Positions 19,433-53,816 of a stretch of DNA of 64,000 nucleotides are shown here, piece by piece. Position 1 is the stretch's first letter. Each line of letters starts with the position of its first letter. The notes beneath the pieces are model-generated. The model did no database searches and was not told where the DNA came from. It saw only the letters and a program-made list of their open reading frames with translations. Position numbers and translations under genes: made by a program. Source of the stretch: an uncultured Gammaproteobacteria bacterium. Its GTDB lineage: Bacteria > Patescibacteriota > Patescibacteriia > Magasanikbacterales > GWA2-37-8. The stretch spans positions 13,999-77,998 of the forward strand of contig CAZEDL010000007.1 of the NCBI GenBank assembly GCA_964510885.1, read 5' to 3'.

Positions 19433-19457
19433 TGTCATTCCCGCGCAGGCGGGAATC
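19433..19457. repeat. Family-1 palindromic repeat unit (TGTCATTCCCGCGCAGGCGGGAATC)
   Basis: ATTCCC-N8-GGGAAT hairpin with GTCA/TGAC flanks. It recurs at 25429-25582, 36348-36417, 37201-37224, 42792-42874 and 62210-62219. Confidence 0.8.
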
Positions 19458-19467
19458 CAGTCGCTTA

Positions 19468-20673
19468 CTAAATAATTTTCACAAAAAACCGATTCCCCTT
19501 CTGCACCACATCTCCAGGTTTCACTACCGCTTCAATCGTTTCGACTTTATCATCATTGATCTTAACACCACCTTGAGTAATCACCTGCCGCGCTTCAGAT
19601 TTACTTTTTACCATCTTGCTTTCCACCAACACCGTAACAATATCCATTTTCGACGGCGACAGATTAGGGATAGAATCCGGCACTTCTTTTTGCTGAATCA
19701 CCTCGACAAATCGGGCTTCTCCAGCCTTAGCAGCCGCCTCACCCAAAAATTGCTTGGTAATTTCATAGGCCAAACGCAGTTTAGCATCCCGGGGATTTTT
19801 CGCGCTCGCAATCTCCTCAACCGCGTCCATCGGCACGCGGGTGCAGAGTTCAAACCCAGGCCGGATCATCCCGTCGCTCCAGCGCATCACTTTGCCAAAC
19901 ATATCTTCCGGAGTATCCGACAAGGCAATCATATTCCCTTCGCTCTTACCCATTTTCTTACCACTGTCGTCAGCCAATAATTTTCCAGTCAGAACAAATT
20001 TTTCCTTATGTTTCATTTCTTTCATCAACGCGCGGCCGGCGAGCATGTTAAATGTCTGGTCGTTGCCGCCAATCTCACCGTCCACATCCATCGCCACACT
20101 GTCATAACCCTGCATCAATGGATATAAAAATTCATGCAAAAAAATAGGCTTTTCTTCTGTCACTCTTTTTTCAAACATATCCCGCTCCAGCATCTGCTGC
20201 ACCGTAAAATGACTGGATAATTCCACCACATCTGCAAACGTCATCTTAGCGAGCCATTCACTGTTGAATTTAATCTCTGCGGGATTGCTACCGCCAAAAT
20301 CAAGCACCGCTTCGGCTTGCTGTTTATACGCCGCACAATTCTTAAGCACTTCGTCACGCGTTAATTTTTTGCGCGCCGCACCTTTGTCAGTCGGATCACC
20401 AATCATGCCGGTAAAATCACCGATGAGCACAATCACCTTATGCCCCAAATCCTGAAACTCGCGCAACTTTAAGAGTGTGATGCCATGCCCAATATGGAGC
20501 GTATCAGCCGTAGGATCATAGCCAGTGTATAACACGAGCTGTTTACCTTCGTTCAATCGCGCCATTAAAAATTCCTTTTTAGGATAAATATTTTCTACGC
20601 CACGCGTTAAGAGAGTTTCAATTTTTTGTGAATCGTGTGATACGGACATATTGATATTAAGATAAACGAGCAA
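19468..20673 (-). CDS. tyrS: Tyrosyl-tRNA synthetase (with C-terminal S4 domain)
   Basis: TGYDPTADTLHIGHG (HIGH) and KKMGKSEGN (KMSKS). Start ambiguity: TTG at 20673 with a GAGG-like SD, or ATG at 20649. Confidence 0.9.
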   Translation of the reverse strand: MLVYLNINMSVSHDSQKIETLLTRGVENIYPKKEFLMARLNEGKQLVLYTGYDPTADTLHIGHGITLLKLREFQDLGHKVIVLIGDFTGMIGDPTDKGAARKKLTRDEVLKNCAAYKQQAEAVLDFGGSNPAEIKFNSEWLAKMTFADVVELSSHFTVQQMLERDMFEKRVTEEKPIFLHEFLYPLMQGYDSVAMDVDGEIGGNDQTFNMLAGRALMKEMKHKEKFVLTGKLLADDSGKKMGKSEGNMIALSDTPEDMFGKVMRWSDGMIRPGFELCTRVPMDAVEEIASAKNPRDAKLRLAYEITKQFLGEAAAKAGEARFVEVIQQKEVPDSIPNLSPSKMDIVTVLVESKMVKSKSEARQVITQGGVKINDDKVETIEAVVKPGDVVQKGNRFFVKII

Positions 20674-23413
20674 GGTCAGCCTCGAGTGTCGCTAATTTTT
20701 GCTCCGCCTCCGCTAATTTTTTCTTTTCGCTGTCCACCAACTTCGCCGGCGCATGCGAAGTAAAATCCTCATTCGCCAGTTTAGCCTGTTGGGCAGCAAC
20801 ATACGGTTTTACTTTGGCAATCTCCTTACTAAGGCGCTCTTTTTCTTTGGCCTTATCAACCCCCTCGCTCACATTAGCAAATACCATCACATCACCTACC
20901 GCAAACCCCACCGCTCCGTCTGGTTTTATGATGTCAGATTCAATGGTAAGTGTAGCGATGCCGGTGCGTAAATTCTGTATCAGCGATTTTTCTTGAGACA
21001 AGAGAGCAATTTTTCCTTTGGCGCTGATAGATACACTTATTTTTCGCGCCGGTTCCACTTTATATTCAGCGCGCAAAGCGCGTACTGACACCACAATATC
21101 ACGAATCAAATTAAAATCATCCAAAACCGCGGCATCTTGTTTCAGCTGCTCCAGAGCCGGCCATTTTTGAACTATTAACAACTGATCAGTGCCATACACT
21201 TCACTCCAAATCGCTTCGGTCACAAACGGCATGAACGGATGCCACAACTTCAAAATACTGTTGAGGGCATAATTCAGAATATCTGATTTATCACCTTCGA
21301 TTTTGGCGATCTCTAAATACCAATCCGCGAGCTGATCCCAAGTAAACGTACGCAAGAGCTCTCCCGCTGCCGAAAACTGATACTGATCAAGCGAAGTGCT
21401 CACGAGTTTCACCGTATCACTGAGCTGGCTCAAAAACCAACGGTCACTCAAGGTTTTAGCCGTCGGCTCGGCTATATCCGCCTTAGGATTATCAATCGTC
21501 AGCAGCATAAACCGGCAGATATTCCACAGCTTATTGGTAAAATTCCGGAACCCGGCAATCTTCTCTTCCGACAACTTAAGATCATTCCCCGGCCCGTTAC
21601 CAATGAGCAGCGACAACCGCGTGGCATCCGCCCCAAACTTCGCAATCATGTCGAGCGGATCGATAATGTTATCAAGCGTCTTACTCATCTTCCGCCCCTG
21701 TTCATCACGCACTAGCCCGTGCAAATACACCGTCTTAAAAGGCACATCCCCAATCGCATACGTAGTCATGAGTATCATACGCGCCACCCAGAAGAAAATA
21801 ATATCATAACCAGTCTCAAGCACACTGGTCGGATGAAACCGCGCAAAATCGGGTGAATTTTTCAACCACTCTTCGAGAGAAGAATAATTTTCAAAGCTAT
21901 CTTTAGATAATAAAGTAGAAAAAGTCCACAAGCCAGACGAAAACCAGGTATCAAGTGTATCGGGATCTTGCTCCAGAGCATTCCCACACTGCGGGCAAAC
22001 AACAATTTCATCAACAGACACAAGCGGCTGCGCACATTTCGGATTTCCCTGTTTACAGTAGTAAACAGGAATCTGATGCCCAAACCAAATCTGGCGACTG
22101 ATGCACCAATCGCGTAAATTATCTATCCAATGAAAATACGTTTTCTCAAATCGATCCGGAATAATCTTAATCTGCTCATTACGCACCACCGTCTGCATCA
22201 ACTCTTTCAGACTTACCATCTGCCCGTCTGTAACCCCCTTAATTCTTAGGTCTTTATTCTTAAATTCAAACGGTTTATTCACATCCACAAACCACTGCAC
22301 CTTCGGCAGCGGCTCCACCACATCTTTGAACCGATCAGACGTCCCCACATTCTGAGCAATATCTTCTTCTTTGATTAATAGATCCTGATCTTTCAGATAC
22401 GCCACAAATTTCTGCTGCGCTTCTTTAATCGTGAGCCTGGCATAGGCTGCTCCGCCACTGCGCATCATCTTGCCGTCTTCACCAATCACCTGAATCAGGC
22501 CGATCGGATCCGCCGCCAATCTACAGCGCTCATACATGTCAAAGTCAACCATGCTGTGTGCTGGCGTCACCCCAAGCGCACCGGTGCCAAAACTATCATC
22601 CACCCCGGCGTCCCCAATCACTTTTATAGTCAGCGTGTGGCCGGCCTGTCCCACATTGTTCACCGTAAACACCTGACCAATATACTGCTTCCACTTTCCT
22701 TCCGGATGCACAGCTACCGCGGTATCGCCGAGCTTGGTTTCGGGGCGGGTGGTAGCAATCGGAATCGGAAACTCATGGCTATATTTAAACGTATACAATT
22801 TCGCGGGCCGCTCCACATGCACCAATTCATCATCACTACAGGTTGATTGCCCTTTCACCGACCAATTCACCACCCGATAGCCTCGGTAAATGAGCCCGTC
22901 ATCATACATTTTTTTAAACACGAGTCGCACCGCCCGGCTGCGCACGGCATCAAGCGTATATGCTTCGCGGCTCCAATCAAGCGATGCGCCCATGCGTTTG
23001 CATTGATTCACGATCGTATCATGACTGTCTTTGGCAAATTGATTGACGCGTTCTAAAAATGCATCACGCCCTAATTCTTCCTTGGGCTTCGTGAAACCCT
23101 CATTTTTTATCAGTAGTGCTTCCACTTTTGATTCGGTAGCTATGGCCGCATGATCCGTCCCCGGCACCCAAAGCGCAGCTTCACCCTTCATCCGATGATA
23201 ACGAGCCAGCACATCTTCGATCGCCAGCATGGCTGCATGACCCATATGAAGCGTACCCGTTACATTTGGGGGCGGCAGCACCATGGAAAAATAAGAGGTT
23301 ACATTATCTTGCGCCGAATTATTTTGCGGTCCGAAAAAACCGCTCTGCTCGGAACGTTCATATACCTTGTTTTCATATTGTTTTGGGTCGTAGGCCTTTG
23401 GGAGCTCTTTCAT
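20657..23413 (-). CDS. valS: Valyl-tRNA synthetase
   Basis: PPPNVTGTLHMGHA (HIGH), GRKMSKTLDN (KMSKS), C-terminal coiled coil. 918 aa. Confidence 0.95.
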   Translation of the reverse strand: MKELPKAYDPKQYENKVYERSEQSGFFGPQNNSAQDNVTSYFSMVLPPPNVTGTLHMGHAAMLAIEDVLARYHRMKGEAALWVPGTDHAAIATESKVEALLIKNEGFTKPKEELGRDAFLERVNQFAKDSHDTIVNQCKRMGASLDWSREAYTLDAVRSRAVRLVFKKMYDDGLIYRGYRVVNWSVKGQSTCSDDELVHVERPAKLYTFKYSHEFPIPIATTRPETKLGDTAVAVHPEGKWKQYIGQVFTVNNVGQAGHTLTIKVIGDAGVDDSFGTGALGVTPAHSMVDFDMYERCRLAADPIGLIQVIGEDGKMMRSGGAAYARLTIKEAQQKFVAYLKDQDLLIKEEDIAQNVGTSDRFKDVVEPLPKVQWFVDVNKPFEFKNKDLRIKGVTDGQMVSLKELMQTVVRNEQIKIIPDRFEKTYFHWIDNLRDWCISRQIWFGHQIPVYYCKQGNPKCAQPLVSVDEIVVCPQCGNALEQDPDTLDTWFSSGLWTFSTLLSKDSFENYSSLEEWLKNSPDFARFHPTSVLETGYDIIFFWVARMILMTTYAIGDVPFKTVYLHGLVRDEQGRKMSKTLDNIIDPLDMIAKFGADATRLSLLIGNGPGNDLKLSEEKIAGFRNFTNKLWNICRFMLLTIDNPKADIAEPTAKTLSDRWFLSQLSDTVKLVSTSLDQYQFSAAGELLRTFTWDQLADWYLEIAKIEGDKSDILNYALNSILKLWHPFMPFVTEAIWSEVYGTDQLLIVQKWPALEQLKQDAAVLDDFNLIRDIVVSVRALRAEYKVEPARKISVSISAKGKIALLSQEKSLIQNLRTGIATLTIESDIIKPDGAVGFAVGDVMVFANVSEGVDKAKEKERLSKEIAKVKPYVAAQQAKLANEDFTSHAPAKLVDSEKKKLAEAEQKLATLEADLARLS

Positions 23414-23414
23414 A

Positions 23415-23699
23415 TCAATTCTTTGGGGTAGACTTAGGCCGGACAGTCGCAGACTCCAGCTCAGCTAAATCTGATTCAAGATTGGGAAATATCAATGCCA
23501 ACGCAATACCAGGGTGATCTTTTTTAAACTCTTTTATTGATTTTTTTAACAGTTGTAAGTAACCAGCAAGCATATGCGGTTCACTGCCAATAGCCAGCCT
23601 CGCAGCTTCAAAACTCGCATTGATTTGAGCTATATCTTGCTGAACTTCAGAGGAAAAATCAATTACTTCGATCGATGAGCCACCGGTTGCTTCTAACAT
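23415..23699 (-). CDS. Hypothetical small protein (94 aa)
   Basis: Non-overlapping ORF ending 2 nt before the valS start. No family match, no SD. Confidence 0.3.
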   Translation of the reverse strand: MLEATGGSSIEVIDFSSEVQQDIAQINASFEAARLAIGSEPHMLAGYLQLLKKSIKEFKKDHPGIALALIFPNLESDLAELESATVRPKSTPKN

Positions 23700-23766: not shown

Positions 23767-23795
23767 TTGACACAAATTAAAAAATATGCTATAGT
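23767..23795 (+). promoter_or_regulatory. Consensus sigma70-type promoter upstream of the high-GC gene
   Basis: TTGACA-17nt-TATAGT. Confidence 0.7.
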
Positions 23796-23807
23796 GCTTA
23801 GTTGCTA

Positions 23808-23836
23808 TTATGTCTAAATTAGAATTTAGACATAAA
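23808..23836. promoter_or_regulatory. Perfect 13-3-13 palindrome (candidate operator) just downstream of the -10 element
   Basis: TTATGTCTAAATT-AGA-AATTTAGACATAA. Confidence 0.55.
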
Positions 23837-24027
23837 ATAGTAATTAAATAATAGTTATATTTAAGGCAAATTAAGGTTTGTACCTTAACAATTCAGTTGG
23901 CTAAATACCAATAACTTAAAAATGTACGCGCAGACTAAAGAATTAAAATTCTAATTTTTTGATCTGCGCGTATCAACGCGTAAACAATTAACAAGGCCTG
24001 TCCAGGCTGTAGAAAAGGAGGCATATC

Positions 24028-25242
24028 GTGCCAAAACCGTACGACGAGAAACTGCAAAAGTTCAGAACCACACAGGAGGCGGATATCCGCCAAGGAAGGC
24101 TCATACGGCTCATTCCTCAGAAGGAGGAGCGCATCAAAACAACGCTCCAAGACCTCAGGAACCAGAGTGATCGCCGGGTCGCTATCCTGGCAGGTAAGCT
24201 CCTGGCAGAGCGAACCGCCCTCTCAACCCAAGACGCCCAGTTTGAGGCTGTGAAACTCGTGGGGGAGGAGATCTGGGCCGAAGGCGAAGAGGCCAAGGCC
24301 GAGGCGGAGAGGTGGCTCCAGGGCCAGCTCACCACCCCTCTTAACGTCCACGAAACAGCAGAGCTGACACGTCGAAGCAGAGAAGAGGAAGAGCGTCTGG
24401 AGGCCATTTACCAGGCCGAGATCTCGGCCGAACAGGCCCGCCTCGCCGAGGAGCCACCAAGCCGGACCACGGTGCCGGAGCGCACAATGGATCCGACCAT
24501 GTTCCACGGCAGGGCTCTCCCGGTCCTCGAGACGGACGATATGGAGGAGGCGGGCCCGGCTCCAACCGCGCTGGACACCCTTCCCCCGCAGGAAAGAGAG
24601 CTGGCCTCGGTCATTGTGGACCAGGCTGGGATCGAATCCCGGGTCCACCCCCTCAGCCCGCACCGTCCTCCAACGACGGCGCACCGGATGATCGGGGAAG
24701 CGCCCCACCCCGCCAACCAGACTCCCATCGAGCCACTGGCGGCCACACCCAGGCGTGCGGCCACCCAGAACGAGGTCGATACCCTGGTGCGACGAGGCCC
24801 CGCTCCCAAGGAGCGATGGCACCTGAACGATAAGCAAAAATCCGTGCTATGGGTTTTGATCTTGGTGGGAGTGCTGGTGGGTGGAGGAGGATGCCTTGCG
24901 TGGCTTGTCAACAAGCTATCCACCTCGGAGCGTCCCGCCGCCGCCCGGGTGCTGAACCAAACCGCTCCCGAAATCACGCCCGCCATGCAGCGGGCGATCG
25001 ACAAGGCGGTGGCCACTGAGGTCGCCGCCAAGACAGCGGAGTGGGAGAAGAGATTCACCCTGCGCAGCGAGGTCCGCGCGCTCATCATGAGCGAGGTGAG
25101 CACCCAGCTCCCCCCGGAGCAGCCAGCGCCCCCGCGCCCCCGGCCGCTGCGCCCCCGGCCGCTGCCCGACTTCGACAAGGGCCGCCAGCCTGACAGGCCC
25201 GGCCTCCGGTACCCGTTTACCACCACGAGGCCACGCCGCTAA
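24028..25242 (+). CDS. Hypothetical Pro-rich single-pass membrane protein encoded in a high-GC island (404 aa)
   Basis: GTG start with a perfect AAGGAGG SD 6 nt upstream. Charged N-terminal region, TM helix VLWVLILVGVLVGGGGCLAWLV, PRPRPLRPRPLP tail. ~65% GC with AGA/AGG Arg codons, unlike neighbouring genes. Confidence 0.6.
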   Translation: MPKPYDEKLQKFRTTQEADIRQGRLIRLIPQKEERIKTTLQDLRNQSDRRVAILAGKLLAERTALSTQDAQFEAVKLVGEEIWAEGEEAKAEAERWLQGQLTTPLNVHETAELTRRSREEEERLEAIYQAEISAEQARLAEEPPSRTTVPERTMDPTMFHGRALPVLETDDMEEAGPAPTALDTLPPQERELASVIVDQAGIESRVHPLSPHRPPTTAHRMIGEAPHPANQTPIEPLAATPRRAATQNEVDTLVRRGPAPKERWHLNDKQKSVLWVLILVGVLVGGGGCLAWLVNKLSTSERPAAARVLNQTAPEITPAMQRAIDKAVATEVAAKTAEWEKRFTLRSEVRALIMSEVSTQLPPEQPAPPRPRPLRPRPLPDFDKGRQPDRPGLRYPFTTTRPRR

Positions 25243-25313
25243 CCACGACCAACCCACCCCCCCACACCGCTCCGATCTAATCGGAGCCCAGCCTATCGGG
25301 GTGGAACGACTAA

Positions 25314-25399
25314 TCCAGGCCAGCCAGCGTCCACCCCTCCTGACCGATCGAGTCTCTCGATAGTTCAGGAGGACGCTCGCTGCCTGGATTTTTTGTTTT
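25314..25399 (+). terminator. GC-rich intrinsic terminator after the high-GC gene
   Basis: TCCAGGCCAGCCAGCG...CGCTCGCTGCCTGGA followed by TTTTTTGTTTT. Confidence 0.6.
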
Positions 25400-25428
25400 C
25401 TAAACATGATAATAAAAGGGGTTACTCC

Positions 25429-25582
25429 ATTCGCACGAGCTCATTCGGAATGACAAATAAAGAGTAAAGTGACCAGATTCGCGCCTGCGCGGGAATGACA
25501 ATTGGCCGGACAGAGATTCCTCACATTCGTTCGGAATGACAAGTGTTTGGACAGAGATCCTTCGCTCCGCTCAGGATGACAA
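25429..25582 (+). repeat. Tandem array of four family-1 hairpin units (ATTC-N14-19-GGAATGACAA), separated by 14-20-nt spacers ending in GACAGAG/GACCAG
   Basis: Units at 25429-25456, 25477-25501, 25516-25552 and 25557-25582. Unit 2 (ATTCGCGCCTGCGCGGGAATGACAATTGG) is near-identical to dispersed copies. The unit-4 loop TTCGCTCCGCTCAG recurs at 36348. Confidence 0.8.
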
Positions 25583-25910
25583 TTGAAAATAACAAAAAAC
25601 ACAAAAAAAATACTTCAATCACTACAACGCTCACCACCCCGCACCATTGCGCAGCTGAGGCCATCTGGCCCCGGTGAACAGAAGCGGCCGGCAGAGCAGG
25701 CGCTGCTGTTTGAGGCCCAACGGGCCGAGTTCAGGGCCCGAGCTTCGACGCGCCGTTGGCAGCGGCCGAGTGAAGCACCGGTTCGGTGGTTTTTTGGGCC
25801 TGTCCTCCGGATGAGGATACTTTTTTGCCATCAAAAAAGTAACATACCACTCACCAAAAGGTGGTTTACGGTCGGAGACAAAAAGTCACACACCGTCACA
25901 AAACACCAAA

Positions 25911-25939
25911 GTTGACACGATAATAATCACCTGTTATAA
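25911..25939 (+). promoter_or_regulatory. Consensus sigma70 promoter for the DHH-family gene
   Basis: TTGACA-17nt-TATAAT. Confidence 0.75.
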
Positions 25940-25996
25940 TCACGCGTTCTTGCTAAAATAAGCCTAAGAACCCTGCCTTCATAGGCATGAAATCCT

Positions 25997-27157
25997 ATGG
26001 CCCTGACTCCCTCCGAACAATTCAACCATCTGATCGGGCAGAGCCAGCAGATCCTGATTGTTTTCAGCCCCGGAACTGCCCTCGATGCGATCGCGAGCAG
26101 CCTCGCTCTCAAGCGCTGGCTGGAGAAAAAAAACAAGCGGGCCGATGTGGCCGCCGCTGGTTTTGTGTTGCCTAAAAATGCCCGCTTCCTGCCCGGCAGC
26201 AGCGACATCAAACCCCTACTTCAAGAATTACAAAAATTCATTATCAAAATTGATGTCTCGAATGCCCCGCTTGAAACCTTAAGCTACGATGTGAGCGGCA
26301 ATACCCTATCGATTTATCTCACTCCAAAGAGCGGCCTGCTCAGCAAAAACGAACTGCGCACGGCGCAATCAACCTTTAAATACGATTTAATAATTACCCT
26401 TAACACACCCGACCTGGCCGCACTCGGCACCGTTTTTTCTGCCAACCCCGATTTATTTTACCGCACCCCGCTCGTAAATATCGATTACCACGCCACCAAT
26501 GAACATTACGGCCAGGTAAATCTGGTAGACATCACCGCCACTTCGGTAGCCGAAACTCTGACGCATGTACTGAAACAAATCGATGAAGCGGCTTGCGATA
26601 CCGGCGTAGCCACCGCCCTCTTGACCGGCATGGTGGCCGCCACGCACAGTTTCAAAAATGCCAACGTCACGCCGCAAGCCCTGCAACTCGCCAGCAATCT
26701 GATCAAGCAAGGCGCGGAACGTGAAACCGTAATCCACCACCTCTATCATGCCCATTCGCTCACCACACTCAAGCTCTGGGGCCATGCCCTGACGCATTTA
26801 CAAAATGATGGCGAAACCGGCCTCGTCTGGGCCAGCCTGACCCGCGATGATTTCGTCCGCTCCGGAGCCAGTGAACAGGACCTATATGGCATCATTGAAG
26901 AACTAATCAACAATTCTCCCGAAGCCAAAGTAACGGCTTTATTTTACGAATCCACTCTCCCCAACTCTAACACTATTCATTGTCTCGTTAGCAGCGGCAA
27001 ACATGCTAATGCCAGCGAACTCCTTAAATCATTCAACCCAACCGGAGATAAAAAACAAGCCAGCATTGTGCTGACGGAAAAAACTTTGAAAGAAGCGGAA
27101 ACTATAGTGCTCTCTGTCATTAAAAACAACCTAAATAATAAATTGGGTTCCACTTAA
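25997..27157 (+). CDS. DHH/DHHA1-family phosphoesterase-like protein (NrnA-like) with degenerate catalytic motifs
   Basis: NIDYHATNEH resembles DHH motif III (usually IDHH). C-terminal SSGKHANA resembles the DHHA1 GGGH motif. Motif I is degenerate (FSPGTALDAIAS). Confidence 0.5.
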   Translation: MALTPSEQFNHLIGQSQQILIVFSPGTALDAIASSLALKRWLEKKNKRADVAAAGFVLPKNARFLPGSSDIKPLLQELQKFIIKIDVSNAPLETLSYDVSGNTLSIYLTPKSGLLSKNELRTAQSTFKYDLIITLNTPDLAALGTVFSANPDLFYRTPLVNIDYHATNEHYGQVNLVDITATSVAETLTHVLKQIDEAACDTGVATALLTGMVAATHSFKNANVTPQALQLASNLIKQGAERETVIHHLYHAHSLTTLKLWGHALTHLQNDGETGLVWASLTRDDFVRSGASEQDLYGIIEELINNSPEAKVTALFYESTLPNSNTIHCLVSSGKHANASELLKSFNPTGDKKQASIVLTEKTLKEAETIVLSVIKNNLNNKLGST

Positions 27158-27267: not shown

Positions 27268-28851
27268 CTACACCAAACTCCTCCCCGTCATCTCCGGCGG
27301 CTGAGGCAGACCCATAAGCGATAATACCGTCGGCGCCACATCGGCCAAAATTCCAACTGGTGATAACAAGCTAAGATCGCCTTCCAGGGCATCTCCCGAC
27401 GGCCCAGCCGTGCCCTGAAAATCTTTGCCGATAATCAAGAGCGGCACCGGGCTCGTGGAATGTTCTTTATCGATCTCGCCCGTCTGCAAATTAAGCACAC
27501 ATTCGGCATTGCCATGATCGGCTGTCATCACCACCACGCCGCCTTTGGCGAGCGTATGATCTACCACCTCTTTAAACGCCTGATCACACGCTTCAATCGC
27601 TTTGATACTTGCTTCGAGGTTCCCAGTGTGCCCCACCATATCCGGGTTGGCAAAATTCATTGCCACGAAATCAAACTGCCCACTATCGATCGCTTTGGCC
27701 GCTTCTTTAGCCACTGCACGCACCGACATTTCAGGCGCGTCGGCATAACTAGCCACCTTGGGCGAGGGCACGAGCACACGCTCTTCGCCAGGGAATGCCG
27801 TTTCTACCGTCCCGTTCAAGAAGAACGTCATGTGCGCATACTTTTCCGTCTCGGCAATATGAACTTGCTTTAAGCCGGCCTTACTCACTGTCTCGGCCAG
27901 CGAATTAGTCACAATAATCGGCGGATAGGCCACAATCACCGGCAATTCTTTTTCATATTCCGTCATGGTAACAAACCATAATTTATCATAATATGTGCGC
28001 TCAAATTTGTGGAATCCCGGCAACACAAACGCCTGCGTCAATTGCCTAGCCCGATCCGGACGAAAATTGAAGAATATAACGGCATCACCATTTTCAATCC
28101 TAGCCACCGGTTTCCCGCCGTCGGTAAGTACCGTCGGCACGAATTCTTCATCATAATTTTTTTGTTCATAGCTTGCTTCCACCGCCGCCACCGGATCAGT
28201 CGCCGTGCGTTCGGCCACCCCCTCAGTCATTGCCCGATAGGCTTTTTCTACCCTGTCCCAACGATTGTCGCGATCCATAGCATAATACCGGCCAGATAGA
28301 GTCGCGATCTTGCCTACCTTGAGACTTTTCAGTTTCGCCTGCAACTCTTTCACTATACCAAGGCCCGAATTAAATACCATGTCACGCCCATCAAGAATAG
28401 CGTGCACGAATACTTCTTTGGACAGTCCTTGAGCTTTACATAATTCCAAGAGAGCAGACAGGTGTTCATCGCTGGCATGTACATTACCCGACCCAACCAG
28501 CCCCACCAGATGCAATTTACTCTTATTCGCGCGCACTTTTTCAACTGCTTTCAAAAATGCCGGATTGGTAAAAAACTCTTGACTGCTAATCTCTTGGTTA
28601 ATGCGCGGACACGATTGATAATATACGCGGCCCGCCCCGATATTCAGATGCCCCACTTCAGAATTTCCCATTTCTTGCGGCATGATGCCAACTTCCATCC
28701 CCGAGGCATAGAGCGTCATCACCGGATAATTTTTCACGTACGATAAAAAATTCGGAATAGTAGCACGAGTGATAGCATTCCCCTCGCTGTCCGGGGCTAC
28801 ACCCCAGCCGTCAAAGACGGTCAGCACTACTGGTTTATAATTATAAGGCAT
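27268..28851 (-). CDS. gpmI: 2,3-bisphosphoglycerate-independent phosphoglycerate mutase (copy 1)
   Basis: MPYNYKPVVLTVFDGWGVA..., catalytic-Ser region GNSEVGHLNIGAGR, C-terminal phosphotransferase domain. 527 aa. Confidence 0.9.
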   Translation of the reverse strand: MPYNYKPVVLTVFDGWGVAPDSEGNAITRATIPNFLSYVKNYPVMTLYASGMEVGIMPQEMGNSEVGHLNIGAGRVYYQSCPRINQEISSQEFFTNPAFLKAVEKVRANKSKLHLVGLVGSGNVHASDEHLSALLELCKAQGLSKEVFVHAILDGRDMVFNSGLGIVKELQAKLKSLKVGKIATLSGRYYAMDRDNRWDRVEKAYRAMTEGVAERTATDPVAAVEASYEQKNYDEEFVPTVLTDGGKPVARIENGDAVIFFNFRPDRARQLTQAFVLPGFHKFERTYYDKLWFVTMTEYEKELPVIVAYPPIIVTNSLAETVSKAGLKQVHIAETEKYAHMTFFLNGTVETAFPGEERVLVPSPKVASYADAPEMSVRAVAKEAAKAIDSGQFDFVAMNFANPDMVGHTGNLEASIKAIEACDQAFKEVVDHTLAKGGVVVMTADHGNAECVLNLQTGEIDKEHSTSPVPLLIIGKDFQGTAGPSGDALEGDLSLLSPVGILADVAPTVLSLMGLPQPPEMTGRSLV

Positions 28852-28855
28852 AAAA

Positions 28856-28937
28856 AATCTGGAATCTGGAATTTAGAATCTAGAATATAGAGAACAGTAC
28901 TGAAAAAATACTATTCTAAATTCCAGATTCCAAATTC
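28856..28937. repeat. Long palindromic element (family 3) downstream of iPGM copy 2
   Basis: A >=19-bp stem GGAATCTGGAATTTAGAAT / ATTCTAAATTCCAGATTCC around a ~33-nt loop. The T-run on the minus strand fits a terminator for gene 2. Confidence 0.75.
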
Positions 28938-28946
28938 TAAATTCAA

Positions 28947-30521
28947 TCACCAGAGCACCCTCCCCGTCATCTCTCCCGGAATGGCTATCTCCATACTTTT
29001 TAAAACACTCGGCGCCACATCAGCCAAACTGCCAGCGCGCAAGTGTTGTCCGCCCTTTAAGCCAAGCGCCGTGAGCCGCTCCGGCGGAGCCACCACCACA
29101 AATGGCACGGGATTACGCGAATGCTCAGTATCTATTTCTCCGGTTTTAATATTTTTCATCTCTTCGGCATTGCCATGATCCGCAGTGATAAAAACGGTAG
29201 CACCTGTAGCAAGGGCAGCACTAACAACTCGTTCTAAGGCTACATCGAGCACCCTAATCGATTCTTCTGTCGCTCCTAATTGGCCAGTATGACCAAGCAT
29301 ATCCGCATTGGCAAAATTTGCCGCTAACAAATCATACTGCTTGCTCTCGAGCGCTTTAATCAAGGCTTCGGCAATAGCAGCTGCCTGCATGGCTGGCTTA
29401 TCGGTGAAACGCTCCACACTATCAGAGGGTATTTTTAACCAGGTTATATTGCCTGAATGATCGGCATAACCACCATTAAAAAAATAAGTTATATGGGCAA
29501 ATTTTTCCGATTCAGCCACATATAGTTGTCGCCGCTCACCAAGCTGATTCACGAAGCCGCCCACCACATCGCGACTCGGAAAAGCCGTCAAGACCCCCGG
29601 CAAATCAGGGCCAAAATCCGTCATCGCCACAAATCTAATATGTGCCGGCATCCGGACACGGTCGAAGCTGGCCGCATTAGCCTTTGTGAAATCTGGCTGA
29701 ACAAAAGCTTTAGTTAGCTGGCGCGCCCGGTCGCTGCGCAAATTAAAAAAGAATACTACATCATTATCCTCCACCGGGCCAACTGGCTTGCCTTGGTCAG
29801 TTACCATCACTGTTGGCGCAACAAACTCATCGCTCTCGCCGCGATTATACGCCTCGGCGATAGCCGCTTCAGCCGTAGTAGTCGTATGCCGAGCCGAACC
29901 ATTAACAATTGCATTATAGGCCTGCTCCGTGCGCTGCCAATTTTTATTTCGATCCATGCTATAGAGCCGCCCACAAATACTAGCGATTTGTTCGCTCCCA
30001 TGACAGCGATCGCGTAATTTTTTTAGATACTGCAGAGCATCATGCTCACCTGAATCGCGTCCATCGGTAAATAAATGTAAATATACTTTTGTTATCCCTT
30101 CTCGTGACAACAGATCAAGCAGTGCATACACATGCTCGGGCGAACTGTGGGCACTATTGTGGTTGCTAAGCAAGCCCATCACATGGGCCGCCGTATTATA
30201 TTTTTTAAGATGATGCACCGCTTCATGAAATGCTGTATTTTTAAAAAATGTACCGTCTTCAATCGCCTCCGAGACATATAACGCATCCTGCTTCACCACC
30301 CGGCCCGCCCCCAAATTTAAATGTCCGGCTTCGCTATTACCCTCTTGCCCCTCGAACAAACCAACCGCCGCACCACTGGCCGCAAGCTCGGTATGCGGAT
30401 ACGTCTTTAACCACTCAAAAAAATGCGGTGCCGTGCGGGCCGAAATAGCTGATACATCGTGGTCAGTGGCTGGGCAGCCCCAGCCGTCTAATATCAAGAG
30501 CAACGTGGGAGAAGGTGTCAT
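28947..30521 (-). CDS. gpmI: 2,3-bisphosphoglycerate-independent phosphoglycerate mutase (copy 2, diverged paralog)
   Basis: MTPSPTLLLILDGWGCPA... GNSEAGHLNLGAGR. 524 aa, the same domain order as copy 1 but a clearly diverged sequence. Confidence 0.9.
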   Translation of the reverse strand: MTPSPTLLLILDGWGCPATDHDVSAISARTAPHFFEWLKTYPHTELAASGAAVGLFEGQEGNSEAGHLNLGAGRVVKQDALYVSEAIEDGTFFKNTAFHEAVHHLKKYNTAAHVMGLLSNHNSAHSSPEHVYALLDLLSREGITKVYLHLFTDGRDSGEHDALQYLKKLRDRCHGSEQIASICGRLYSMDRNKNWQRTEQAYNAIVNGSARHTTTTAEAAIAEAYNRGESDEFVAPTVMVTDQGKPVGPVEDNDVVFFFNLRSDRARQLTKAFVQPDFTKANAASFDRVRMPAHIRFVAMTDFGPDLPGVLTAFPSRDVVGGFVNQLGERRQLYVAESEKFAHITYFFNGGYADHSGNITWLKIPSDSVERFTDKPAMQAAAIAEALIKALESKQYDLLAANFANADMLGHTGQLGATEESIRVLDVALERVVSAALATGATVFITADHGNAEEMKNIKTGEIDTEHSRNPVPFVVVAPPERLTALGLKGGQHLRAGSLADVAPSVLKSMEIAIPGEMTGRVLW

Positions 30522-41229: not shown

Positions 41230-41353
41230 TTCGTCAAAATAACTTTACAAAATTAGACAATTACTCATCTCAACCAGCCAAGCCGTTAAACCAATACCGA
41301 CTCGGCTGGTGGAGCAATCTCGCTTCTACCAGACCGCTACCAAGGAGGTAGTC

Positions 41354-41893
41354 ATGATCCGACAGAACGCACGCACGATCGCCACCCTCAGCATCGCCCT
41401 CGGCCTCACAGGATGCGGGGCTGATGCACCCGGCGGGGGCGGCAACACCTGCACCGACTTCGACGTGAGCGTCGACTCGACGAGCCCGAGCGGCACGGTC
41501 ACGGCCGGACAGCAGGCGGACGTGATCCACTTCAACGTGAAGGGCTGCACGGGCTTCACCCTGATGAACCTCTTCACCTGGGCTTCCGGGAACAGCTCCC
41601 CCTACCTGGACGGAGTCCCCTACCAGGTGATCGGTCTCAGCGACGGCATGATCTACCAGAACTGGCAGACCGCGAACGGAGCGGCCCACCTGGGCGCCGC
41701 GGACGACACCAACTACGTGGCCCTCTCCACCGGGTCGGTCTACAAGCTGGTGCTGGGCCTGCCGGCGGGCCTGCCCTCTGGTACCACGATGCAGTGGCAC
41801 CCCGCCGGCTTCCACTACAAGGACACCGACGGCATGACCCACGACGGCAGCGCACCGCCCACCGCGGTCGGCAACACGCTGACGATCAAGTAG
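41354..41893 (+). CDS. Hypothetical lipoprotein encoded by a high-GC, high-GC3 island
   Basis: AGGAGG SD then ATG. MIRQNARTIATLSIALGLTGCGAD (signal plus LTGC lipobox). GC3 is near 90% (atc/aac/gac/ctg codons), unlike host genes. A GC-rich terminator follows. Confidence 0.65.
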   Translation: MIRQNARTIATLSIALGLTGCGADAPGGGGNTCTDFDVSVDSTSPSGTVTAGQQADVIHFNVKGCTGFTLMNLFTWASGNSSPYLDGVPYQVIGLSDGMIYQNWQTANGAAHLGAADDTNYVALSTGSVYKLVLGLPAGLPSGTTMQWHPAGFHYKDTDGMTHDGSAPPTAVGNTLTIK

Positions 41894-41997
41894 TCGCGGT
41901 CCAAAGCGCCGCGATGAGCAAGGGCTGACCAGCGCCGTTCGCTGGCCAGCCCGCCTTTCTCTAAAATCATAAACAACGACTTACGATTTGAGAGAAT

Positions 41998-42028
41998 AAA
42001 AAAATTCCGGCTTAACCGGAATTTTTTT
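41998..42028. terminator. Bidirectional intrinsic terminator between the lipoprotein gene and tsf
   Basis: aaaAATTCCGGcttaACCGGAATTttttttt. Confidence 0.75.
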
Positions 42029-43888: not shown

Positions 43889-43962
43889 GTAGAGGATTGA
43901 CTTATTCAATGGATATGATAAGGTGCGCTGTCCAGAATCTGGACACAGAGGAAAAAAATAAG

Positions 43963-44661
43963 ATGAAGATGGTTAAAATTTTTTTTCCGGGCTATGCCCA
44001 CGACGACACTGCTCACTTTCAACTTCAAGATCGGGCAATCCATTACCGATCAAAAAGTTGGTTGGGCTGGCAAACCCTTGGCAATAAAGCCGAGGTGAGC
44101 GCTCGACTCCTCCACGGAATATTGAATAACCTAGCAGACGATCAGGGTGTGGAAGTTGTAGCCCACTCGCTCGGCTGCCTAATAGCCGTGTGGGCGATCA
44201 CCCTCCTGCCTGCAGACAAGCGCAAACAGATCACCCAGCTCACCCTAGTAGCACCCACCGGCTTCTGTAATCGCCGACGGTTCCTGACCTTCTGGTTCCT
44301 GTTCATCCTGGTCGGCTGGCGCGGACATCTAGCCGCCCTCCTAGGGCTCTTGTTCCCAAAACACGGTGCCCTGGTGCCGCCTTCGGTAGCAACGCGCCTG
44401 TATGGGCACCGGCATGAAACCGGAGAAATAGTCCACGACTCGTCTGTTGCATTTCTCCAGCTGGTGCTCGGGCTCTACCCGAATGCCTTGGCCAGACTGT
44501 TGGCTCAGGGCTTCGACCGGGACAAAATTACCATGGTCGGTGGGACGCACGATGCCTGCGTGAATGCCCAGTGGGTCCACGACGAAGCCGCCACGGCTGA
44601 GACGAGTTACCACGAGCTGCCAGTCGCCCACTGCGGCCACCCCACCACCTTCCCCTACTGA
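43963..44661 (+). CDS. Alpha/beta-hydrolase-fold protein (esterase/lipase-like), moderately GC-rich
   Basis: The start is moved to MKMVKIFFPGYAHDD (GAGGA SD 11 nt upstream; the ORF track starts at 43897). Nucleophile elbow VVAHSLGCLIAV. C-terminal HDACV...CGH region. Confidence 0.55.
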   Translation: MKMVKIFFPGYAHDDTAHFQLQDRAIHYRSKSWLGWQTLGNKAEVSARLLHGILNNLADDQGVEVVAHSLGCLIAVWAITLLPADKRKQITQLTLVAPTGFCNRRRFLTFWFLFILVGWRGHLAALLGLLFPKHGALVPPSVATRLYGHRHETGEIVHDSSVAFLQLVLGLYPNALARLLAQGFDRDKITMVGGTHDACVNAQWVHDEAATAETSYHELPVAHCGHPTTFPY

Positions 44662-44796: not shown

Positions 44797-44888
44797 ATTA
44801 ATCAATAAACCGCAGTCCTATACAAAAACTTATTTTTGTATAGAATATATTTACCAGAAATTTTTCTGGCAACTCCAGGAGTTTGATA

Positions 44889-45134
44889 ATGTTACGTAAA
44901 ATTGTCAGTTCGTTTATAATGATCTGTCTGTGCATGGGAGGTTCGAATAACGACATCCCAAGCGCCGGCGGGCAGAACGCACAAGCCTGCATGTGCATCT
45001 GCAAACCCGGCTGTGACACAGGAGAATACTGTGTGCAGAAGGGCTGCAGCTGTAGCTGCAAAAAAATCCCTACTCCTCCTAACGAGCCGCTGCCGGCACC
45101 CGAAAGTAAACCGGTGTGCGAGACACAGAAGTAG
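44889..45134 (+). CDS. Secreted Cys-rich small protein (81 aa; 12 Cys in ~50 mature residues)
   Basis: AGGAG SD. MLRKIVSSFIMICLCMGGSNNDIPSAGGQNAQA (signal, AxA site), then CMCICKPGCDTGEYCVQKGCSCSCKKIPTPPNEPLPAPESKPVCETQK. The ORF track starts 6 nt earlier at TTG. Confidence 0.55.
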   Translation: MLRKIVSSFIMICLCMGGSNNDIPSAGGQNAQACMCICKPGCDTGEYCVQKGCSCSCKKIPTPPNEPLPAPESKPVCETQK

Positions 45135-53740: not shown

Positions 53741-53816
53741 GGGCCTGTAGCTCAGGGGTTAGAGCGCCACCCTTATAAGGTGGATGTCGATGGTTCAATT
53801 CCATCCAGGCCCACCA
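53741..53816 (+). tRNA. tRNA-Ile with a UAU anticodon, CCA encoded
   Basis: GGGCCTGTAGCTCAGGGGTTAGAGCGCCACCCTTATAAGGTGGATGTCGATGGTTCAATTCCATCCAGGCCCACCA. The body is near-identical to bacterial tRNA-Ile(GAU). Anticodon stem CCACC/GGTGG, loop CTTATAA, positions 34-36 TAT. Confidence 0.8.

Follow-up and report, generated by a model that had tools for sequence, protein, structure and literature searches.

Horizontal gene transfer, genomic islands and competence genes have been reported as common in Patescibacteria (PMC12455944). We analyzed a 64,000-nucleotide stretch of DNA from contig CAZEDL010000007.1 (hereafter the window, with positions counted from its first letter) and focused on a GC-rich islet at 23990-25830, which carries one long open reading frame (ORF404) in the divergent intergenic region between the valyl-tRNA synthetase (ValRS) operon and a DHH/NrnA-like gene. 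Judged from its sequence, the host is a Candidate Phyla Radiation (CPR)/Patescibacteria bacterium of a Magasanikbacteria-like kind. The closest ValRS matches, at 46-60% identity, come from Magasanikiibacteriota, Peribacteria/Peregrinibacteria and similar metagenome-assembled genomes (MAGs). The islet appears to belong to a type of horizontally acquired islet that is already known in Patescibacteria (PMC12455944). Like the published islets, it has an atypical composition, is absent from syntenic relatives and sits in a lineage reported to carry competence/pilus genes and many islands. It differs in having one gene, no mobility genes and no detectable donor or homologue, whereas the published cases were called via donor-recipient pairs. 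It is also GC-rich, unlike the usual AT-rich orphans.

Two other described systems resemble the locus in part. In Neisseria, minimal mobile elements and NIME/dRS3-NTS arrays combine conserved flanks with a cargo that varies between lineages (PMC11893778; PMC3082526). The hairpins of the Neisseria family are bound and cut in single-stranded DNA (ssDNA) by the GIY-YIG nuclease SsnA, modulating transformation, and they cluster near membrane-protein genes (PMC11893778). The present locus shares the conserved flanks and the varying cargo, and here too hairpins of the Neisseria Transformation Sequence (NTS) type adjoin a membrane-protein gene, match the consensus with 1-2 mismatches and occur as intergenic, multi-copy repeats. 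However, our comparison spans distant lineages and not strains. Integron gene cassettes are similar in that a promoterless single reading frame is followed by a 3' imperfect inverted repeat, is served by an upstream promoter and is often an orphan. We rejected an integron cassette here. The flanks of the hairpin downstream of ORF404 (GTGGAAC/GTTTTCT) misfit the attC cores RYYYAAC...GTTRRRY and there are no R''/R' sites. No IntI integrase or attI was found, the flanking genes being those for ValRS, TyrRS, ArgRS, DHH, iPGM and enolase. Since this 3' hairpin ends in a T-run and lacks attC cores, we read it as a plain terminator.

The segment 23990-25830 is probably DNA of foreign composition that was inserted, specifically in this lineage, into the ValRS/DHH intergenic region, with an orphan membrane gene as its cargo. 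The native DHH/NrnA-like gene (25997-27157, + strand) and its perfect promoter-like site (TTGACA-17-TATAAT, 25912-25940, +) form the right-hand host flank. The neighbors are housekeeping genes (ArgRS, TyrRS, ValRS, DHH, two iPGM paralogues, enolase and PGK). In three relatives (loci L004, L006 and L088), the DHH/NrnA-like gene is divergent from ValRS, which is followed by TyrRS, and the wider order iPGM-iPGM-DHH<->ValRS-TyrRS-ArgRS is kept in L004 and L088. The DHH and ValRS starts lie 139 bp (L004), 200 bp (L006) and 957 bp (L088) apart in these relatives but 2583 bp apart in the window, which indicates an insertion. The slot in the window has gained about 2.4 kb, consisting of the small open reading frame p94, the GC-rich cassette, a hairpin array and a GC-rich tail. 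The comparison with relatives that had been suggested in an earlier, sequence-only reading of this DNA thus favors an insertion: the cassette is absent from the L004/L006 slot, and L088 holds a different cargo. The p94 frame (23415-23699, - strand; 94 aa, GC3 of 0.34, where GC3 is the GC content at third codon positions) is an AT-rich orphan that stops right at the start codon of ValRS. A tblastn search found no match to it in any relative locus, and no family matched, which suggests that a low-GC orphan gene was gained in the slot as well.

The cargo of L088, the closest relative, is again GC-rich (0.57 GC against a background of 0.40). It is an orphan frame of 226 aa encoding a multi-pass membrane protein, placed in the same orientation as ORF404 (L088 9116-9796, also L163 4001-4681) and present on 5 independent contigs, and our searches found no homologue of it. 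On this sequence comparison, the ValRS/DHH slot is permissive. The same slot holds a different orphan membrane gene in each of the two lineages, and the case would show how a streamlined genome can gain a single gene, set as a cassette between housekeeping genes, without mobile-element machinery.

The compositionally foreign cassette is the GC-rich block at 23990-25392 (+), which comprises a Shine-Dalgarno (SD) sequence, ORF404 and the terminator stem and has 65% GC. In 300-nt windows over 24050-25400, the GC content is 0.60-0.71, compared with 0.45-0.50 in the background (median ~0.48) and 0.30-0.32 in the upstream leader. GC of at least 0.60 sustained at the 200-nt scale occurs in the window only at 24104-25404 and 41255-42001. 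The sequence-only reading had placed a GC jump exactly at the GTG start codon. The jump is real but its position is not, as the block begins about 35 nt upstream (~23990, SD included) and within the first 150 nt of ORF404, GC rises gradually from 0.48 and passes 0.60. The 3' limit of the block is the terminator stem at ~25392. The shifted codon usage noted earlier was reproduced, with GAG at 77% (31% in the host), AAG at 69% (28%), GAC at 62% (28%) and AGA plus AGG at 25% (5%). The GC3 of ORF404 is 0.765 against 0.495±0.055 in 44 host frames (z=5.0). The symmetrised dinucleotide signature of the block is delta* 175 from the host, while 300 host segments of the same length gave 67±17 with a maximum of 115.

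For an Ala/Arg/Pro-rich protein, the GC excess by itself overstates foreignness. When we re-encoded the ORF404 protein with host codon preferences, the result had 58% GC and a GC3 of 0.56. Ala/Arg/Pro/Glu content therefore accounts for about 60% of what exceeds the 48% background, and synonymous codon choice for the remaining ~40%. The block is nevertheless foreign beyond GC alone, because both GC3 and the dinucleotide signature fall outside the host range, and the compositional argument of the sequence-only reading stands in this form.

ORF404 (24028-25242, +; 404 codons from GTG) is most likely a real protein gene, as judged from its coding features. Its SD sequence AAGGAGG (24015-24021, +) lies 6 nt ahead of the GTG. 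The stop-free run of 409 codons compares with 201±45 in dinucleotide-preserving shuffles of the 1403-nt block, and 1 of 1000 shuffles reached 409. The GC contents of the three codon positions are 0.70/0.49/0.77, which is the pattern of a coding frame from a genome of about 60-65% GC. The intrinsic terminator (25312-25400, +) starts 70 nt past the stop and consists of a GC-rich imperfect hairpin of ~79 nt (25312-25390) followed by TTTTTTGTTTT. The hairpin terminator proposed there before was confirmed, with a folding energy of -56.2 kcal/mol for the hairpin plus T-run (z=-6.2). The gene had also been credited with a perfect promoter and SD. The SD stood, and so did a sigma-70-type promoter-like site (TTGACA-17-TATAGT with a TG extension, 11/12, 23767-23795, +), but this site lies 232 nt upstream of the start codon and is not adjacent to it. 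The proposed domestication through a local promoter comes down to a consensus match 232 nt upstream, which is not evidence of expression. In the mechanism we propose, the cargo would be a single promoterless cassette of SD, 404-codon frame and its own strong terminator, and its transcription would probably start from the sigma-70-type promoter in the native AT-rich intergenic DNA.

The predicted product is an orphan bitopic membrane protein. Its single hydrophobic segment, SVLWVLILVGVLVGGGGCLAWLV (24841-24915, +; residues ~272-296, Kyte-Doolittle 19-residue mean of 2.42), would form the transmembrane (TM) helix. A net charge of +4 in the 20 residues before this segment and of 0 in the 20 residues after it predicts an N-in/C-out topology. 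The single-sequence AlphaFold2 model has a mean pLDDT of 59.6 and is confident in the helices only. In the prediction, two helices (4-102 and 107-141, pLDDT 73-93) are followed by disorder at 142-266, by the TM helix and by a further helix at 318-359, and the Pro/Arg-rich tail at 360-404 is disordered. The protein would thus have a cytoplasmic long-helix (coiled-coil-like) domain and a disordered linker on one side of the membrane, while the Pro/Arg-rich tail would lie on the external side together with a short helix. Within the sequence encoding PRPRPLRPRPLP, the 15-nt unit CGCCCCCGGCCGCTG is duplicated in perfect tandem (25135-25149 and 25150-25164, +). This repeat at 25135-25164 had been pointed out in the sequence-only reading, and 0 such repeats are expected by chance.

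The lifestyle assumed for CPR bacteria is one of attachment to other cells, and envelope proteins specific to a lineage are leading candidates for recognizing the host. The ORF404 product would most likely act as a lineage-specific envelope or surface accessory protein. Bitopic envelope proteins such as VirB10/TraB and many anti-sigma factors have a similar layout, in which a cytoplasmic N-domain is linked through a single TM helix to an external segment rich in Pro. ORF404 differs from these families in having no VirB10 C-terminal barrel, no anti-sigma domain and no profile match, and the likeness is architectural only. A relationship to VirB10/TraB was considered and rejected. The PDB match covered only the TM helix and linker, aligned to the N-terminus of F-type TraB (E=0.013), and we judged it architectural or compositional. 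The VirB10 C-terminal beta-barrel gave no Pfam/NCBIfam match in ORF404, which has just 108 residues beyond the TM helix.

No homologue of ORF404 came up when 5.8 billion clusters were searched by word index, or when 1.84 billion cluster representatives were scanned exhaustively with phmmer. The protein matched nothing in Pfam, PHROGs, NCBIfam or PADLOC, and nothing in viral contigs, plasmids or phages (plasmid/phage DNA and tblastn). A Foldseek search of the single-sequence model against PDB returned nothing at E<1. A real gene in an antisense or other frame was also considered; the sole Pfam match was B12D at E=0.0094, with 15.7 bits below the family cut-off of 21.5 bits, and it was rejected. 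The high-GC donor postulated in the sequence-only reading did not emerge from the protein clusters, viral contigs, plasmids or phages. The horizontal acquisition itself fared better, being supported by the insertion in synteny and by the GC3 and dinucleotide signature outside the host range. With no donor or homologue found, composition and synteny make the whole case for a foreign origin. From what is known of Patescibacteria, the most likely route would be that a naturally competent lineage took up foreign DNA, which then recombined illegitimately or under guidance of the flanks.

Several points weigh against this acquisition and have to be set beside its rivals. No donor or homologue of any kind appeared in the 5.8 billion clusters, the 1.84 billion representatives or the viral, plasmid and phage sets, and amino-acid composition explains the larger share, ~60%, of the GC excess. 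With a ValRS identity of 46-60%, the relatives are too distant to date the insertion. No integrase, transposase or tRNA lies nearby, the closest tRNAs being at 8.7 and 53.7 kb, and no convincing direct repeats flank the islet. Orphan genes are reportedly AT-rich as a rule, rather than GC-rich, as Daubin and Ochman are said to have described in 2004. The lack of any homologue among the 1.84 billion representatives and the lack of mobility genes in the neighborhood would equally suit a native gene, born de novo or diverged very fast, whose GC stems from composition and a local mutational or recombination bias. Such a gene would also fit the expected GC of 0.58 from amino-acid content and the three other GC-rich orphans (lipoprotein-like, multi-pass and membrane-anchored) in this and two related CPR genomes, for which no homologues or family matches came up, the membrane-anchored one having been compared with profile libraries. 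We consider a native origin unlikely, because amino-acid content is insufficient to raise GC3 from the expected 0.56 to 0.77 and because the dinucleotide signature is more deviant than that of any of the 300 host segments sampled. In addition, the GC-rich block takes in the untranslated SD region and the terminator, and a 48% GC genome has no evident source of GC-rich non-coding DNA. The DNA could also be acquired while ORF404 is only an open frame tolerated in GC-rich junk and not a functional gene. GC-rich DNA does yield long frames on both strands, and the antisense frames of 272, 204 and 163 aa that had been anticipated are present. One shuffle in 1000 reached the observed length, and there is no homologue with which purifying selection could be tested. 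We hold this quite unlikely in view of the consensus SD at the correct spacing, the coding-like asymmetry of codon positions, the single clean TM helix with positive-inside flanks, the long, confidently predicted helices and the dedicated terminator 70 nt after the stop.

A further rival is an assembly chimera, in which a fragment of a high-GC organism was joined into the CPR contig, for example via shared NTS-type hairpins, which are present in many unrelated genomes (PMC11893778). ORF404 is found on two Logan run-level contigs (L001 and L002, from SRR16481186 and SRR16481187), and both match the window at 100% identity over a stretch that starts inside ValRS, passes p94 and the AT-rich leader and takes in the whole frame and its terminator. 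The left junction, where the sequence-only reading had allowed for a chimeric join, is thus reproduced exactly by two independent assemblies. On the other side, both contigs end within the hairpin array (~25584 and 25494), which leaves the right junction uncovered and counts against the insertion. No other contig for this junction is on record, nor is one with the DHH protein. L001 and L002 break at different array units, which would fit an assembly graph that branches at a repeat also present in other genomes, or a copy number that varies within the population. Both flanks are immediate neighbors in the relatives, so that a chimera presupposes two false joins, both falling on precisely this intergenic site. 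The analogous insertion in L088 on its 5 contigs also speaks against an artifact, and we regard a chimera as very improbable. The insertion of foreign DNA remains our preferred explanation of the islet.

Downstream of the cassette are four NTS/dRS3-type (Ssn-related motif) hairpins at 25428-25582, all oriented on the - strand, with a period of ~41-45 nt. On the plus strand, all four units end in GGAATGACAA or AGGATGACAA, and on the minus strand the units are TGTCATYC-hairpin-GRATC elements. By sequence comparison, they belong to the dRS3/NTS family, a known family. The unit at 25473-25500 differs by 2 mismatches from the Neisseria NTS consensus CGTCATTCCCGCGMAVGCGGGAATCYRG, taken from PMC11893778, and single copies at 19433 and 42846 differ by 1 mismatch each. 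Three matches with up to 2 mismatches occur in the window, against 0 expected. A looser pattern gave 14 matches against 0.8 expected, of which ~12 look genuine and intergenic. The NTS/dRS3-type hairpins matched by the pattern in the window lie at 19433, 25428-25582, 36348, 36391, 37201, 42793, 42849 and 62210, and related copies occur in L004 and L086. Hairpins of this type, characterized in Neisseria, are thus multi-copy in a CPR genome too. One array unit has a 21-nt exact match in L037, a Clostridiales contig. A CRISPR array was considered and rejected, as the hairpin units have no spacers, repeat every ~41-45 nt and have dispersed single copies elsewhere.

Unlike in the Neisseria arrays, a motif scan of the 64-kb window found no ssnA-like GIY-YIG frame, and the L088 slot with its own cargo has no such hairpins. 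For these two reasons, we treat the array as a resident repeat beside the cassette and not as its vehicle. The four downstream hairpins would then be copies of a genome-wide intergenic repeat of this organism. TGTCATTCCCGCGCAGGCGGGAATC would be a candidate target for ssDNA cleavage by an ssnA-like nuclease.

The array is followed by a GC-rich non-coding tail (25600-25830, +), with ~65% GC at 25600-25800 and two terminator-like sites. The hairpin (5 bp) and T-run that had been seen at its end were confirmed at 25776-25796, and a second terminator-like hairpin with T-run lies on the plus strand at 25801-25827. As had been stated, the tail has no convincing ORF: no frame shows coding-like position asymmetry, and no called gene is on record for it. 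Most likely it is what remains, after decay, of the same acquired DNA or of DNA acquired earlier. The sequence-only reading had also allowed for a small RNA, and an independent small RNA gene at ~25618-25796 would have a weak promoter-like site (9/12) at 25583-25611, its end at 25776-25796 and two plus-strand terminator-like sites. This option would suit the GC content of the tail, which is high for the host, and the fact that no frame carries a coding signal. We find it improbable, because no Rfam family matched at E<=10 and because the tail folds no better than its shuffles (z -1.1 to -1.7), has no similar sequence in the window or the 163 loci and has no relatives for covariation. A perfect complementarity of 11 nt between the tail and the Pro-repeat region was discarded as chance level for GC-rich DNA (~0.3 expected, an estimate). 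If the tail is a remnant, as we prefer, the ~200-nt GC-rich DNA keeps two terminators just upstream of the perfect DHH promoter-like site, and these probably shield the DHH gene from read-through.

On the left side, ORF404 is preceded by an AT-rich leader (23802-23989, +; ~30% GC) with two long palindromes at 23804-23843 and 23924-23973. Owing to these palindromes, the segment 23802-23990 folds far better than its shuffles (z=-5.4). A second promoter-like site lies within the leader region on the opposite strand (23976-23948, -), and the palindromes are situated between these facing promoter-like sites (+23767 and -23976). From their sequence and placement, the palindromes could be operator sites, or the 5' untranslated regions of ORF404 and p94-ValRS could overlap there in antisense. 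For leader and tail together, the best Rfam covariance-model scores were 19-20 bits, compared with thresholds of 38-90.

A second GC-rich single-gene islet is present at 41270-41955 (+) and has the same build, with a promoter-like site (TTGACA-17-TATAAC, 41201, +), an SD, a reading frame and GC hairpins after the stop. The frame, ORF179 (41354-41893, +; 179 aa, GC3 of 0.92, z=7.7), is lipoprotein-like with the lipobox LTGC. No homologue of it was found, and since the protein collection lacks its protein, the gene has apparently never been called. The dinucleotide delta* between the two islets is 175, which suggests a different source. Both ORF404 and ORF179 are candidates for surface-protein studies. 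In the Peribacteria MAG L012, a GC-rich island at 19725-20875 (0.62 GC against 0.39) holds a 224-aa frame with an N-terminal TM helix and a Pro-rich region, directly after a gene for a VirD4-like P-loop ATPase. The island had no Rfam family match and the frame no match in the profile libraries, the only collections searched for it. Such GC-rich islands are otherwise rare across the 163 sequences (162 loci and the window).

It may therefore be that GC-rich orphan envelope-protein genes recur in these genomes, which would be unusual because orphan genes are, as far as is generally known, typically AT-rich. It would be a long shot to see the ValRS/DHH region and other sites in Magasanikbacteria-like CPR genomes as a recurrent capture site and a systematic source of new surface genes. 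Its members would be ORF404, ORF179 and the 226-aa frame of L088, which have no homologue among ~15 billion proteins, and the 224-aa frame of L012, which was compared with profiles only. If true, surface genes would arise from a systematic source rather than by sporadic horizontal transfer. This source could be DNA of a host or partner that the competence machinery takes in and that gives rise to new envelope proteins, or it could be de novo gene birth from captured GC-rich DNA. The NTS/Ssn-type hairpins might delimit recombination tracts.

Some smaller observations were made elsewhere in the window. A Ser_hydrolase-like frame at 43897-44661 is GC-rich in its 3' two-thirds (GC3 of 0.65, z=2.8), and a mosaic is possible. 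It is followed by a Cys-rich frame of 83 aa with a hydrophobic N-terminus (44883-45134). The tandem iPGM paralogues at 27268-30521 are ~42% identical, and the pair is conserved in L088 and L004. At 53741-53816, a tRNA-Ile with the anticodon TAT (UAU) represents an uncommon bacterial way of reading AUA.

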